IMG/VR virus record: IMGVR_UViG_3300036785_000389
Span: 1 to 61,782 of that record
DNA from: a virus
Taxonomy: Duplodnaviria > Caudoviricetes
Strand: one strand, 5' to 3'
DNA: 61,782 nucleotides
The position numbers and the translations under genes are program-made. The notes beneath the pieces are model-generated. The model worked only from the letters and a program-made list of their open reading frames with translations, made no database searches and was not told the origin of the DNA. Positions 1 through 20,050 of the stretch are shown piece after piece (position 1 is the stretch's first letter; every line of letters begins with the position of its first letter).

Positions 1-126
1 ACAAACTCATAGGCAAGATCGACGCCGCGCATCTCGGCCAGTGCCTTGACCTTGCGCTGTTGCTCTCGCAGCGACGTGCCTTCAATCTGTTCCTCGGTCG
101 AACAGCGAGCGTACCCTAAGATCATG
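1..126 (+). repeat. Terminal direct repeat copy 1 (circular assembly overlap)
   Basis: ACAAACTCATAGG...TAAGATCATG is identical to 61642-61767 and lies within the 5' end of the recombinase gene. Confidence 0.95.
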
Positions 127-14209: not shown

Positions 14210-14443
14210 GCGTTCTCTGTTCGTTCGAGCCACCGTACCATACGCTGATTCGTTGTGTCGAGTTTCTACGGTTGGAGCGTGCCTCAATCCACAGAACAAC
14301 TGGCCGACTATAGCCGCAGTTCGGTCCGCTTTCAGCTTCGCGAGGTTGATTTATGGTTTGCAGAGAGCCCTATTTCCCTCGACCCCAATAGATTCTGATC
14401 AACAAATGGAGGCGAAGCAACATTGTCTTCTTCATCTTGATGG

Positions 14444-14650
14444 TTAATCACGCATGTAAGACCGGCGTGTATCAATATCGTTGTAGGTCGTAGCCTCTCG
14501 ATTTGACGCGATCACAGCCTCCCCGGTCTTTGGACGCGCCCCCCGGGCGGACACTCGCGGCATCACACCTGAAACCTTCGGGCACGGCCTCCCCACCCCA
14601 ACCCTAAAAGGGTGGTTCTGACCACACTCCAAACAAGAATACCAATCCAT
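14444..14650 (-). pseudogene. 5' half of a phage Zn-finger/basic protein gene split by the insertion
   Basis: CLEC..H..C, then DTRRSYMRD; continues at 11928 as YMRKRRAAK. Confidence 0.7.
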
Positions 14651-15078
14651 AAAGTTAATCTGACACCGTTAGTTTAACGAAGGCAAGGCGACTACATAAA
14701 CCATTTTCATTTTCCGGGGGAAAGGGTGAGGTGCCCTCTAATCATCCTCGCGCCGACCCATTTACTTGCAAAAAACACCGCCGCAACCGGAAATACCCAC
14801 GAAATTTCAAACCCTCTATTAAGCTTCTGACGCCCTCCCCGGCGCTGAATATCGAGTTCGATCGGCACCTCATTTTCTGCCGGCAGAAAACTCCTGAATA
14901 AATATCTCCAATTTCTCAATTATTTCAATACCACAACATATCGAGACGTACACACTTACAAGACCGTCACTTACCAAGCGCAAGGCTTTGAGCCATGGGC
15001 GCATCCTGACCTGGCCGGCGATCAATCACGGTGCGATTTTGCTGGCGCCGAGCTGCCGGATCGCGCTATGTGAGGCGC

Positions 15079-15432
15079 ATGGGCGTTCAGCAAGCCGAGC
15101 CGGTCGCGCGCGTAATTAGCCGTCGGAAACACCCCCGCGCAGTTCCCAAACACCACGCACCCTTAAAACGGATGCACCGGGAAACTGGAGTTGATTTGTT
15201 AGCTGAGGCTATCTGGCCTTGGCATTGGGCAGCGTATCCAGGGCTACTTAAGGGGTTGTGGGGGTTGTTTGGGCCGAGGGCGGCTAAGGTCACTATCAGA
15301 GATTGGCGAAGGGGCCGTAGGGGCGCCCCTGTATGGGCCTTAGACCTTCTAATAGCCGAGGCGAGGAAGCGGGTCGCTGTACTATCGGCCGCAATTGAAC
15401 GAGCCGAAAAAGAAAAAACCACGCGGAAATAA
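15079..15432 (+). CDS. Hypothetical HTH-like basic protein
   Basis: TIRDWRRGRRGAPVWAL. Confidence 0.5.
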   Translation: MGVQQAEPVARVISRRKHPRAVPKHHAPLKRMHRETGVDLLAEAIWPWHWAAYPGLLKGLWGLFGPRAAKVTIRDWRRGRRGAPVWALDLLIAEARKRVAVLSAAIERAEKEKTTRK

Positions 15433-15570
15433 TAGCGTATTTGCCTATTTAGATCAATCCCCACATGCGTCTTTAAGACGTAACAATTCGTGATTAGACA
15501 TATACGACATTAAGGCTCATTGGTTCATTCATGCCCGATTGGCGTTGGGCAATAACCGAGAGGACTTTCC

Positions 15571-17367: not shown

Positions 17368-18042
17368 TTACGAAGCATCATGTTTTTGCCCCTTAAGCGT
17401 TTCCAGTAACGACGGAGAGACGCCGCGCCCCGGATCAATGCCGGCGGCAGCACATTCGCGACTTAATATAGTCTCTGAGGCGCGCAAGTGTGTCTCTCGC
17501 ATGATGCTTTTCGCCTCATCCGCAGCATCTTTTCCCCGCCTATCCCTCGCCAGCCAACCACCCTTTCCGTCGCCGTATTTGTCCTTTAACTCATCATAGG
17601 TCGGTCGGTTTGCTTTGTCCGCTTGCTCTAGCTCGAATAGCTCTCGTTCGGTGAATTGCTGCCGAATACGTTCATCCCGCAACCTATCGTGCTCGACCTT
17701 TTCCGCCTCATTGTCGCAGAACTCTTTAACCTCTGCTGGCGTCGGTAAAAACTTCATTGTCGAGGCTAACCCCGTGCGCGGGTCGGTCGCTAAAATAACA
17801 ATCCATTGGGGATAAATCGACAGAACCGCCGCGACCGCCGCGCAATACATCTCAGGATCGTGGGCCTCATCCTTTCGGTAACAAGCGAACAGGATTCGCG
17901 TTCTCTCTAGGAAAAAGTCCGGGTCTGGTTGGCATTGCGCCGAAACTGAACTCTCCAACTCTTGCTTTTTCGGCAAGACGCCCAGCGGCGCGACTAATGC
18001 TGAGGTCATTGTCTTGAAGTGGTCGCGGTCCTCTCGATCCAT
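17368..18042 (-). CDS. Putative helicase loader/inhibitor-like replication protein (start uncertain)
   Basis: DPEMYCAAVAAVL..DPRTGL..KFLPTPAEV; follows an initiator-like gene. Confidence 0.55.
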   Translation of the reverse strand: MDREDRDHFKTMTSALVAPLGVLPKKQELESSVSAQCQPDPDFFLERTRILFACYRKDEAHDPEMYCAAVAAVLSIYPQWIVILATDPRTGLASTMKFLPTPAEVKEFCDNEAEKVEHDRLRDERIRQQFTERELFELEQADKANRPTYDELKDKYGDGKGGWLARDRRGKDAADEAKSIMRETHLRASETILSRECAAAGIDPGRGVSPSLLETLKGQKHDAS

Positions 18043-18259
18043 TGCCGTTTCCTTTCGCTATCCTACGCAGCCATCCCTTAAACGCCATGCTCCAGTTTGA
18101 CTTGCGGGCTATCTGGCGATTTGAATTTGCTCCTGCCCATAATTTCAAATCCTCAATAGCGTCGTCAATTTGTGTTCTCGTGAGGCCGAGCTTTTTTCCG
18201 TAATCTAGGTCATCGCATGTCGGTTGCCAATCGTGAGGAAGCGATGATCCAGACGCCAT
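17867..18259 (-). CDS. Replisome-organiser C-terminal (DnaT-like) domain protein with no N-terminal HTH
   Basis: LPHDWQP..EDLKLW..KSNWSMAFKGWLRR; RBS GGAG. Confidence 0.6.
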   Translation of the reverse strand: MASGSSLPHDWQPTCDDLDYGKKLGLTRTQIDDAIEDLKLWAGANSNRQIARKSNWSMAFKGWLRRIAKGNGNGSRGPRPLQDNDLSISRAAGRLAEKARVGEFSFGAMPTRPGLFPRENANPVRLLPKG

Positions 18260-18260
18260 T

Positions 18261-18479
18261 TTATTTCTCCATTCTCTTATTTGTTACAGAAAGTTTACGG
18301 TTTTCAAATGCAATTCTTGCTCGATTTTTATTCAAAATAAAATTCATTTTGCGGTTAAAAGCACCAGGAAAATGTTGCAAACGAGGAATTTCCGTAAAAA
18401 AATAAATAGTTTTCAAGGGTTTAACTTTGTCAAACTCAAGATTTATGCCATGAAATTTCATTGTGATCTGATTCTCCAT
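18261..18479 (-). CDS. AT-rich hypothetical ORF (possibly origin DNA)
   Basis: RBS-like GGGGG; markedly more AT-rich than its flanks. Confidence 0.35.
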   Translation of the reverse strand: MENQITMKFHGINLEFDKVKPLKTIYFFTEIPRLQHFPGAFNRKMNFILNKNRARIAFENRKLSVTNKRMEK

Positions 18480-18494
18480 AGCTGCCGCTTTTCC

Positions 18495-18912
18495 CCCTTG
18501 GTATAGGCTCACGCCTATGGACCAAGCCCTCACGACAAGGGCGTAATGGGGTACTAAATTGTCCCCGGCCCGGCTTAATAAGGCCCCGGACCATTTCTAC
18601 GGCTCGTCAGTTCCGTAGAACCTTGGTAGGCCCACGCGGCTTTCACCGCGCCAAGGTGCTAGTTGCCAATACTACAGGCAGAGCCAGCAATTTGTTTTCT
18701 GAGGGTAGGAGACGCCCCAGCCCGTCGCCACATTGCGATCACCGTGGTCATAGCTCGATCGGCTATTAGGCCGGGCTGGCAGGGGCTTGGGTCTTGACCT
18801 GGAGGTAAAGTGAATGTAAATCACATTTACTTCCTTCGTTCCGCAGCCTTGCCAAAGACCTTGCGGACATCGCCCGGCCGGGATCGCATCTCGCGCCGGG
18901 CTTCTCTTTTTT
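18495..18912 (+). ncRNA. Candidate structured ncRNA with a nested ~85-nt sRNA
   Basis: About ten adjacent hairpins; G-U pairs favour the + strand; TTGACC-17-TAAATC at 18794-18822; ends in a terminator. Confidence 0.6.
18872..18912 (+). terminator. Rho-independent terminator
   Basis: GCCCGG...CCGGGC followed by TTCTCTTTTTT. Confidence 0.7.
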
Positions 18913-18975
18913 AACGCTAAAATGACAACATTTCCAAGACCATACAGATAGATGTTATTTGTTGATTTCCTACTA

Positions 18976-19164
18976 TCAGTTGATTTTAGGCGGTTCCCGG
19001 TCTTTACAGTCGCCGCAGCACCACCACATCAGCAATGACCATTGGCCGTGAACCGGACCAAGATCGCCCACAAAACGCCAGCCATTCGATAGCGCCATAA
19101 TCACTAGGCGATGTGCCACGAACGCGAAAATTCCGCGCGTAGGACTTTCTAATCGACTAGGCAC
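18976..19164 (-). CDS. Small hypothetical phage protein
   Basis: FVAHR..GW..DLGPVHGQWSLLMWWC. Confidence 0.5.
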   Translation of the reverse strand: MPSRLESPTRGIFAFVAHRLVIMALSNGWRFVGDLGPVHGQWSLLMWWCCGDCKDREPPKIN

Positions 19165-20050
19165 AAGCGGCCTCACGAGCAAACAGGTCATCTTGTCGGT
19201 CCTGGGCGTCCAGATAACGGCAGGCTTGGCGCCAATAACTCTCTTTCAGCTCTACGCCGATAAACCGGCGCTTTAATTTCAGGCTCGATACACCTTCGCT
19301 TCCGATGCCCATGAATGGCGACAAAACGACATCTCCGGCGTTGCTCCACATAATCAATGCGCGTTCGATAACGTCGAGCTGCAGGGGGCAAAGGTGGCGT
19401 TCGTCGTTTTTCTCACGCGCCAGTTTGACGTTTAGAACGTTGGATTGTTGCACAGTCATCCAAACCGGAGACGCCCACTCCTGCCATTGATCGAGGGGAA
19501 AATCTTGCGGGGTGTGATTGATAGGGTCGGGGTTGTCGCCTGGCTTGATGAATGTCAGCAAATAGTCAGGCATTCCACCGCGCGATTTGCTGCTGTCTTT
19601 TTGCAGTTGCTTGTAAAGCAAGCCAACGTGCTTAGTACGGGTCATTTCGACAACCGGACATTTCCAGATTGTCCGGCGCCCATGATAAATCCATCCAGCA
19701 TCTTCATGGGCGCGAATAATCTGGCCGCTGAAATCCTTAATCCCAACCGCGCCGTCTTTCCATTTTGTCATCGGCAGGTCGGAACAATGCACGGCGGTTA
19801 GCCGTCCAGGCATTGTCACTCGTAGTTTTTCCCGCACTAAAAAAGCATAGTGCTCGGAAAATTCTTCATCCGTGCTGTTGCCCATATCCGCCGCTCCTTC
19901 GGAATAAACAAAAAGAGATCCGAACGGCGGAGAATAGACCGAAAATCCAACGCTATCCTGCGGCAACTGGCTAACAACATCGACGCAATCACCGTTAATG
20001 GATTGATAATTATTGCCGTGCGATTCGTTTAAGCAGCGGATTTTATCCAT
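19157..20050 (-). CDS. DNA N4-cytosine/N6-adenine methyltransferase (beta class)
   Basis: GDC, YSPPF, HLCPLQ, VLSPFMGIGS, GVELK. Confidence 0.93.
   Translation of the reverse strand: MDKIRCLNESHGNNYQSINGDCVDVVSQLPQDSVGFSVYSPPFGSLFVYSEGAADMGNSTDEEFSEHYAFLVREKLRVTMPGRLTAVHCSDLPMTKWKDGAVGIKDFSGQIIRAHEDAGWIYHGRRTIWKCPVVEMTRTKHVGLLYKQLQKDSSKSRGGMPDYLLTFIKPGDNPDPINHTPQDFPLDQWQEWASPVWMTVQQSNVLNVKLAREKNDERHLCPLQLDVIERALIMWSNAGDVVLSPFMGIGSEGVSSLKLKRRFIGVELKESYWRQACRYLDAQDRQDDLFAREAACA

Follow-up and report, generated by a model that had tools for sequence, protein, structure and literature searches.

A conserved structured element of uncultured soil phages as a candidate antisense-gated operon leader

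The window analysed in this study is the whole virus record IMGVR_UViG_3300036785_000389 (61,782 bases, rated 96% complete), a tailed-phage genome with dense coding. Its largest gene-free gap, located at 18260-19157, contains a structured element upstream of a minus-strand operon, and the question raised by this locus is what such an element does there. The reading favoured by the analysis, with a probability of about one half, is that the element is the structured leader of the minus-strand operon, that the loops at the 5' end of this leader dock on two internal sites, and that a cis-antisense RNA of about 80 nucleotides (nt) competes for the same loops.

Folding of 18480-18915 showed that both strands are more structured than their controls. 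The plus strand gave -177.4 kcal/mol compared with -154.2 ± 6.1 in dinucleotide shuffles (z -3.80), the minus strand gave -180.9 (z -3.50), and none of the 100 shuffles prepared for each strand folded as well. A preliminary description of this DNA had proposed a structured element of about 420 nt with abutting hairpins, a terminator, an internal plus-strand promoter and loop words complementary to upstream sites. All of these were located again at the same positions or a few bases away (Table 1), and the element emerged as a block of about 430 nt that folds beyond its shuffles and is conserved. Analysis on Rfam gave 0 matches for the whole window at gathering thresholds, only STnc430 (E 3.5), CRISPR-DR26 (E 6.6) and SNORD50 (E 9.5) for 17900-19300 at E up to 10, and nothing relevant for the loci of 11 relatives.

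The gap produced no match on blastn against INPHARED phages or against 88 loci fetched via the neighbouring proteins. The same layout was nevertheless read upstream of homologues of the 130-amino-acid (aa) protein that is encoded next to the element, namely in the loci L002, L005 and L006 and later in L095, L008 and L009. The family was searched with an nhmmer profile of seven copies (alignment A3), one more iteration and three exact-pattern scans, which returned 85 viral, 58 genome and 52 metagenome stretches; the distribution reported here is that of the exact-pattern scans. About 20 distinct phage or prophage loci carried the element, 15 of them at full length. Among the incomplete copies, L139 and L269 were cut by contig ends, L194 and L163 were partial, and L003/L004 contained the 5' module alone. 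One of the 58 genome stretches was real (L213, labelled as a Bradyrhizobium sp. metagenome-assembled genome), and 7 of the 52 metagenome stretches were real, mostly duplicate viral contigs. Most hits of the pattern scans were due to chance, and the weak metagenome hits L266, L290 and L307 were discarded as transposase coding sequence. The family is small, its members come from uncultured soil phages, and the element was present once per phage with no iterons reported.

Read in the leader sense, which is the minus strand of the window, the copies showed one anatomy. Three 5' hairpins, T', SL1' and SL2', formed in 15 of 15 homologues and were followed by GTCAA, a short variable spacer, the invariant CAGCCCGG box, a hairpin P1 and CCGATCGAGC, and then by a domain of 290-370 nt with GCGGAAAGCGG-CTATGG at its end. 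The GTCAA word, read on the opposite strand, is the -35 of the small-RNA promoter P_as. The box, P1 and CCGATCGAGC together were the most conserved block of the family, and the P1 stem covaried, with one pair being CG in 12 and AU in 2 of 15 sequences. The element was always co-oriented with the downstream genes and mostly abutted them, and in 10 of the 15 copies GGAG and a start codon were found within a few bases of its 3' end. The conserved 3' word of the large domain in the window, GCTATGGAG (minus strand, 18474-18482), contains this GGAG, which is Shine-Dalgarno-like.

The two loop/site complementarities are the strongest result of the analysis. Both had been noticed in the window by the preliminary description, and both recurred in the relatives at fixed positions with differing sequences, hence they are functional and not due to chance. 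Site S1 was 5-8 nt long and always stood directly beside the invariant box. In nearly every copy it was the complement of the loop of hairpin SL1 (named SL1' in the leader), which in the window contains CCTTGCCA (18847-18854). The Watson-Crick runs between cognate loops and sites were 5, 6, 4, 5, 7, 3, 6, 6, 6, 6, 6, 6, 6, 7 and 7, that is, at least 5 in 13 of 15 copies and at least 6 in 11 of 15, where the run of 3 is an RNAfold misfold of L006 in which GGGGAA/TTCCCC (6 bp) can be read by eye. Non-cognate pairs showed a mean run of 3.4, with at least 6 in 7 of 208. The site and loop words were TGGCAGGG/CCTTGCCA in the window, TGCCAGA/TCTGGCA in L002, GGACAG/CTGTCC in L008, ACCCAA/TTGGGT in L095, GAGGAA/TTCCTC in L005, GCTGAA/TTCAGC in L007, GCCAGA/TCTGGC in L151, GACGGC/GCCGTC in L150, GCAAAGC/GCTTTGC in L213 and TGGCGGC/GCCGCCA in L003. 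The loci L287 and L137 have near-identical domains and compensating S1 words, GACGAA/TTCGTC and GCACAA/TTGTGC, respectively.

Site S2 was located 10-16 nt past the block formed by the box and its hairpin, and it was complementary to the unusually large loop of the GC-rich hairpin T (T' in the leader), which in the window contains GATCGCA (18882-18888). Cognate runs of at least 5 were found in 11 of 14 copies compared with 17 of 178 non-cognate pairs, and when the S2 loops were shuffled, 0 of 2000 shuffles reached the observed mean. The window and L136 differed by one compensating S2 change (TGCGATC/GATCGCA and GGCGATC/GATCGCC, respectively).

Comparison of the homologues for covariation, a check that the preliminary description had suggested, showed strong covariation of the helices of both the 5' module and the large domain, in alignments made by mafft L-INS-i. 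For the 5' module (alignment A5, 15 copies), the 24 pairs were 76.4% paired compared with 62.6 ± 1.4 in shuffles, 16 pairs changed on both sides compared with 10.8, none of 500 shuffles reached any of these measures, and slid controls were 23-41% paired. One alignment across both subgroups of the large domain gave almost no consensus structure, and the subgroups were therefore analysed apart. In the twelve copies of the larger, sister subgroup (alignment A7, from which the window was left out), 40 pairs in 9 helices were 88.5% paired compared with 76.5 ± 0.9 in shuffles, and 23 pairs changed on both sides compared with 11.7; none of 500 shuffles was as high, and slid controls were 35-52% paired. 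A long-range helix in this alignment spans about 220 nt, and its UUUCC/GGAAA becomes CCCC/GGGG. In the subgroup of the window (alignment A8, with the four members window, L136, L005 and L009), 18 of 58 predicted pairs changed on both sides. The structure of the large domain is only partly resolved. In the window it includes the hairpins 18497-18526, 18595-18620 and 18621-18656 and the helix of 18717-18724 with 18772-18779.

A small RNA nested in the element on the plus strand had also been proposed, and its promoter architecture was kept in 15 of 15 homologues. Each carried the P_as pattern TTGA(C/T)N, exactly 17 nt, TA, and each copy was followed by a hairpin, a GC-rich hairpin and then a T-run. 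The predicted RNA of the window would start near 18829 and would contain the 3' half of SL2, SL1 and the terminator T. On the minus strand, the -10 of a putative leader promoter, P_L, overlaps the T-run of this terminator. Since the complement of the T-run is the -10 of P_L, the small RNA would be exactly antisense to the first 80-90 nt or so of the leader.

Two further features of the putative P_L were observed. A GANTC word (GAATC or GACTC) was present in its spacer in at least 9 of the 15 homologues (L002, L003, L005, L006, L007, L008, L095, L136 and L151) and was absent from the window. GANTC is the type of site recognised by CcrM-like methylases, DNA methylase genes adjoin the element in these phages, and the word could tie P_L to the methylation state. 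A conserved word like CTATCTGTA(T/G)GG was found just upstream of the -35 in the window (18940-18960), L005, L136 and L008 (alignment A4) and may be an operator or an UP-like element.

Under the favoured reading, P_L at 18937-18908 would start a minus-strand leader about 430 nt long, and T', SL1' and SL2' would form within its first 100 nt or so. The SL1' loop would pair with the 5-8 nt of S1 directly 5' of the CAGCCCGG box, the T' loop would pair with 5-7 nt of S2 immediately 3' of P1, and the two contacts, flanking this small hairpin, would clamp the 5' hairpins to the base of the 290-370-nt domain, which would end at the ribosome-binding site of the first gene. P_as, inside the leader region, would make the opposite-strand RNA of about 80 nt, whose complementarity to T' and SL1' would be complete; because of this, its own loops would carry the S1 and S2 words, and it would compete for the loops of the leader. 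By kissing these loops the small RNA would displace the internal contacts, refold the leader and turn the operon off, the direction of the switch being a guess. The loop and site words may serve as address labels that give each phage its own immunity or copy-control specificity: the contact words differ from phage to phage while the scaffold is kept, which suggests a specificity determinant (heteroimmunity or incompatibility).

The operon under the element in the window is probably a replication operon. The element also heads operons unrelated to replication. A full-length copy in L115 (3591-4028) stands ahead of a terminase operon (large terminase PF03237, 2.4e-18), and copies in L137 (10414-10837), L139 (31-380) and L287 (1248-1669) stand ahead of open reading frames (ORFs) of 739-770 aa with no Pfam family, the N-terminus of which resembles a signal peptide. 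In L003 (2648-3160; L004 is identical), the 5' module, comprising the leader promoter, the antisense RNA and the S1-type pair given above, is joined to a different leader of about 330 nt. The antisense module can therefore occur apart from the large domain. The L003 leader ends in a hairpin and T-run resembling an intrinsic terminator before the first gene, and this copy may work by attenuation.

Because the complementarities are present on both strands, sequence alone leaves the strand of the contacts unsettled. Several results pointed to the leader sense. The consensus fold favoured it (-33.9 compared with -25.9, and -30.5 compared with -21.4), the A7 structure contained 24 G-U cells and 9 A-C cells, GNRA-type loops (GAAA, GCAA) appeared in this sense in L006, L095, L002, L008 and L005, and a change between L115 and L150 yields a G-U pair in it. 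The leader promoter and the ribosome-binding site are both on the gene strand, that is, the minus strand. This strand was preferred mainly because a target transcript on the plus strand would have no conserved promoter and would be antisense to every neighbouring gene.

A number of points weigh against the favoured reading, and the first of them concern the strand. Single-sequence fold energies were equal on the two strands, the A7 structure that gave the G-U excess was partly derived in the leader sense, and for the pairs predicted in both orientations the ratios of G-U to A-C were 6:4 and 1:2, which left the strand undecided. The S1 duplex of the window has 8 bp (one of them G-U) on the plus strand and 5 bp on the minus strand, and the S2 pairing of L009, L002 and L151 extends further on the plus strand. 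As regards the promoters, a P_L-like pattern, TT(G/C)NNN-16..19-(T/G)ANAAA (also read as TTGNNN, 17/18 nt, TANAAA), was recognisable in only 10 of the 15 homologues, and a consensus scan of the window listed neither promoter nor the terminator of the small RNA. P_as and the terminator went unlisted since the -10 matches 3 of 6 positions and the terminator loop exceeds the limit of the scan, and the case for them thus comes from their conservation in the relatives and not from the window by itself. Only two DNA runs, both of soil metagenomes and perhaps the source of the sequence, contained it, and no RNA run was found among the listed holders. As regards the layout, five copies (L150, L115, L213, L137 and L139) have no start codon beside the 3' end, the large domain of the four-member subgroup that includes the window aligns poorly with that of the other twelve copies, and the distance from S1 and S2 to the GGAG downstream of them (18474-18477) is about 255-310 nt, whereas in the plasmids of the IncI1 and IncB groups, where a comparable control is found, the distal site adjoins the rep ribosome-binding site.

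Four other explanations were weighed, the first being an RNA-primed origin like that of ColE1. The replication of ColE1 needs DnaT and RNase H; a structured transcript of some 450-550 nt is faced at its 5' end by an antisense RNA of about 80-110 nt, which ends at the promoter of that transcript and acts at a distance by refolding. In the present element the minus-strand transcript would then be a preprimer (RNA II-like) that would form a persistent hybrid close to its conserved 3' end, which is G-rich, and be processed into a primer for DNA synthesis. The antisense RNA would be RNA I-like and control initiation by refolding the preprimer, and the DnaT-like and loader-like proteins encoded downstream would load the host helicase on the displaced strand. 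The layout agrees, as the predicted antisense RNA is complementary to the 5' end of the predicted transcript of about 430 nt and its terminator overlaps the promoter of the latter. In L008 the element is followed directly by an RNase H-like gene (PF13456 7e-14, PF00075 4.7e-6), and the L003 operon contains one too; no origin-binding initiator was recognised among the 44 scanned proteins of the window (most of them without any family), and a self-contained origin would explain the varied gene contexts of the element.

The two proteins encoded downstream of the element also fit such an origin, although their similarities are weak. The first 70 residues of the 130-aa protein resemble the single-stranded-DNA-binding domain of DnaT. 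The match to PF17948 had an E of 0.012 (15.7 bits, below the cut-off of 25), and this family matched 1 of the 8 members of the 130-aa family at E up to 0.1. Comparison on VIA-align returned DnaT at ranks 1, 2 and 5 with Z of 6.0 (root-mean-square deviation, rmsd, 3.4; 64 aligned), 5.9 and 4.0, the two top entries being 4ou6 and 6aeq, respectively, though Z below 8 is common for small helical domains. Foldseek gave E of 2.6-7.3 to DnaT, and a PDB sequence search with the 130-aa family produced nothing meaningful. The preliminary description had taken this protein for an initiator without its DNA-binding domain, reduced to a DnaT-like C-terminal domain. The weak similarity to DnaT was indeed seen; the part of DnaT concerned is, however, its single-stranded-DNA-binding domain itself, and the protein has the full length of its family, in which 8 relatives measure about 114-142 aa and share a conserved C-terminal tail. 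The 224-aa protein has a confident core at residues 38-114 or so that is weakly helicase-loader-like, with Z of 6.1 to lambda P (9oa1_Y; rmsd 2.4, 70 aligned) and 4.8 to SPP1 G39P (1no1_A; 66 of 67 aligned) on VIA-align, values within the same range. Its Foldseek E was 0.7, and it matched no Pfam or PHROG family.

An RNA-primed origin is the main rival of the favoured reading, although held to be much less likely, and several observations speak against it. In 10 of 15 copies the 3' end of the element runs directly into GGAG followed by a start codon, which fits the control of expression better than an origin. Among the ten loci found by the DNA pattern alone, a loader-like gene was downstream in one (L136) and a DnaT-like gene in none, and the copy in L115 precedes a terminase operon. 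The protein similarities are within the Z range common for helical folds, there was no match to Rfam RNAI, and the cumulative GC skew, a measure that is uninformative in this phage, showed no turning point at the element. To our knowledge, contacts between loops and internal sites are not a feature of ColE1.

The second explanation regards the large domain as an independent functional RNA of a new class (ribozyme, protein-binding or ligand-sensing) that is transcribed before operons only by chance, with the antisense RNA tuning its level or its folding. The complexity of the domain, which is like that of a riboswitch or ribozyme, would suit such an RNA: it has at least nine covarying helices, pairs over a long range and words that are unpaired and invariant (CCGAUCGAGCC, for example). 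The five copies without an adjacent start codon and the separable 5' module of L003 would suit it as well. It was nevertheless judged improbable: in every copy the element points the same way as the genes after it and it usually adjoins them, no candidate ligand, site of cleavage or protein partner could be named for it, and no known family matched.

The third explanation keeps the small RNA on the strand of its targets, as in the control regions of phages P1 and P4. The C4 RNAs of P1 and P7 and the CI RNA of P4 are cut from a same-strand transcript that bears their targets, and they control an antirepressor operon. A plus-strand small RNA of this type would pair with the two upstream sites on a plus-strand transcript and block it. 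The preliminary description had likened the locus to P1 C4, and part of that comparison was borne out: two loops are complementary to two same-strand sites, these pairs covary, the S1 duplex of the window is longer on this strand (8 bp compared with 5 bp), and the S2 pairing of L009, L002 and L151 extends further on it. The same pairs exist equally on the opposite strand, where they would lie within the leader and be intramolecular, and all of the genes served are on that strand; action on the same strand was judged less likely than this. Membership of the C4 family found no support, with no relevant Rfam match to C4 or any other family in the window at gathering thresholds, in the region even at E up to 10, or in the loci of 11 relatives. 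P_as lies between the sites and the small RNA in 15 of 15 copies, so that the sites are not on the transcript of the small RNA. There is no conserved plus-strand promoter upstream; the plus strand upstream is, in the relatives, the antisense of varied coding genes, and any plus-strand transcript would be antisense to every nearby gene. Family searches identified no antirepressor-type gene beside the element. Control of this kind is regarded as very unlikely.

The last explanation, a feature of the DNA itself such as a cluster of sites bound by protein or DNA that forms hairpins (for example an array of operators, a packaging site or a single-strand origin), would agree with the equal folding of both strands and with an invariant block 10-45 bp upstream of the -35 of P_as, where a regulator could bind, but has hardly any probability left, since compensating changes keep the pairing across up to about 220 nt and from loops to distant sites, which protein-binding DNA does not require, G-U exceeds A-C by 24 to 9, and the element occurs once per phage without reported iterons.

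Two other candidates were rejected. RNase P-like words (CUCCAUAG, GGAAAGUCC and CCCGGCUUA) were noticed, but they stand in an order that does not suit RNase P, and none of its models matched. A decayed gene or an inserted repeat was dismissed, as the element is single copy in the phage and conserved with covariation.

Table 1. Positions in the window of the element, its parts and the adjoining reading frames
Feature	Position	Strand	Basis
224-aa protein, confident core residues ~38-114, weakly helicase-loader-like	17368..18042	-	fold comparison
130-aa protein, N-terminal 70 residues weakly DnaT-like (single-stranded-DNA-binding domain)	17867..18259	-	Pfam and fold comparison
72-codon AT-rich ORF (66 codons from second ATG)	18261..18479	-	ORF list
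Large multi-helix domain of the proposed leader	18474..18752	-	folding and covariation
Hairpin arms CTTGGTATAGGC / GCCTATGGACCAAG	18497 / 18513	+	sequence
Hairpin arms TTCTACGG / CCGTAGAA	18595 / 18613	+	sequence
Hairpin arms CCTTGG / CCAAGG	18621 / 18651	+	sequence
Helix arms CCAGCCCG / CGGGCTGG	18717 / 18772	+	sequence
Site S2: TGCGATC on plus, GATCGCA on minus	18734..18740	.	complementary to T/T' loop
Most conserved block of the family: CAGCCCGG, hairpin P1 (18760-18773), CCGATCGAGC	18753..18779	-	invariant columns in alignments A3, A4 and A5
Site S1: TGGCAGGG on plus, CCCTGCCA on minus	18777..18784	.	complementary to SL1/SL1' loop
Small-RNA promoter P_as: -35 TTGACC (18794-18799), 17-nt spacer, -10 TAAATC (18817-18822)	18794..18834	+	conserved in relatives
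Hairpin arms GGAGGTAAA / TTTACTTCC	18801 / 18826	+	sequence
Hairpin SL2' of the minus-strand leader	18801-18834	-	forms in 15 of 15 homologues
Predicted cis-antisense small RNA, ~80 nt: SL2 3' half, SL1, terminator T	18829..18910	+	predicted from promoter and terminator
Hairpin arms TCCGCA / TGCGGA	18840 / 18862	+	sequence
Hairpin SL1 (SL1' in the leader), stem TCCGCA/TGCGGA	18840..18867	+	present in relatives
Hairpin T and T-run; first hairpin of the leader (T') on minus	18872..18912 (stem-loop 18872-18901, T-run 18902-18912)	+	covariation in alignment A5
Putative leader promoter P_L: -35 TTGGAA (complement 18932-18937), 18-nt spacer, -10 TAAAAA (complement 18908-18913)	18908..18937	-	predicted from sequence

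The minus-strand genes upstream of the element code for a DNA methylase (PF01555, 2.7e-15), an SNF2-type helicase and RusA, and those downstream are the 130-aa ORF and then the 224-aa ORF, for which scans of Pfam/PHROG-type libraries found no family at E up to 0.01. Elsewhere in the phage, RecT-like, exonuclease-like and NinB-like proteins and a serine recombinase are encoded. The base composition showed an AT-rich stretch at 18250-18499 (GC 0.28-0.35) that flanks a GC block of 0.50-0.64. Most of the AT-rich stretch is covered by the 72-codon ORF, the stop of which is one base ahead of the start of the next gene. A stop-free run of this length was reached in 64 of 2000 dinucleotide shuffles, and family library searches gave no match for the ORF. 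The minus-strand operon probably begins with this ORF.

The 130-aa and 224-aa ORFs overlap in different frames in the window and all eight relatives (L002, L003, L005, L006, L007, L008 and L009 among them), by about 130-290 nt, mostly about 165-180 and in the window about 175 (17867-18042). The tail of the first protein is conserved at protein level, and the N-terminus of the second, where it is overlapped, shows little conservation. A start of the second gene at a point further downstream, a genuine long overlap or a frameshift site may lie behind this. A 71-codon minus-strand ORF at 18976-19191 shares 35 nt with the 3' end of the methylase gene and takes up part of the gap that precedes the leader promoter. 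At 14300-15570, another gene-poor stretch of about 1.3 kb contains only short, mutually overlapping ORFs and adjoins a macro-domain/phosphatase-like gene and an anti-restriction-like ORF; neither a copy of the element nor an Rfam match was found in it. A search for transfer RNA and transfer-messenger RNA found none.

Should the favoured reading be true, an RNA-based switch of early genes or replication would be added to phage biology outside enterobacteria, a natural re-addressable two-key RNA switch would be available, and a new large structured RNA family, absent from Rfam, would be offered for structural study. If the element were instead an origin, a ColE1-style RNA-primed origin would stand in a tailed-phage genome. 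A bolder proposal is put forward tentatively, as possible and not as probable: the 290-370-nt domain might represent a new class of large phage RNA, either an RNA II-like preprimer, which would make the element a self-contained origin independent of protein, or a folding switch of ribozyme or riboswitch grade, gated by two programmable contacts with an overriding antisense RNA and giving addressable immunity or copy control by RNA only.

Compared with known systems, the proteins downstream of the element differ from their references, being much shorter than, or otherwise dissimilar to, DnaT, lambda P and G39P, with sequence support that is marginal or absent. With the C4 and CI RNAs the element shares two loop words complementary to two sites in the same control region, and the variation of these words could likewise set a phage-specific immunity; it differs in that the predicted small RNA would be transcribed from a promoter of its own on the other strand, no covariance model matches it and no antirepressor gene is present. 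With RNA I and RNA II of ColE1 it shares a small antisense RNA set opposite the 5' end of a long structured transcript and terminating at its promoter, whereas in most copies the long RNA of the element would continue directly into a ribosome-binding site and genes.

For a few groups of enterobacterial plasmids, control by an antisense RNA that competes with a pseudoknot is textbook knowledge. Literature searches found no description of antisense control against a pseudoknot in a phage. According to passages of one source on the IncI1 and IncB/O plasmids (PMC8053102), their antisense RNA prevents a pseudoknot that is needed for rep translation, and in the Inc RNA-repZ (repA) system of IncI1 (ColIb-P9) and IncB/O the cis-antisense RNA targets a 5' loop that otherwise pairs with a distal site of the same RNA, an arrangement that the present element resembles. 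The element differs from these plasmids in having two contacts with a large domain in between, in belonging to a phage replicon, in having no sequence or Rfam relationship to them, and in showing no conserved leader-peptide ORF of the kind coupled to translation in IncI1 and IncB. As in IncI1 and IncB, the antisense loop would carry the same word as the distal site, a correspondence that held for both S1 and S2 against the non-cognate and shuffle controls, with the strand proposed as above. Overall, the odds are about even that the element is a new conserved antisense-gated leader, in which a plasmid-type control by antisense RNA and pseudoknot has its place in phages.

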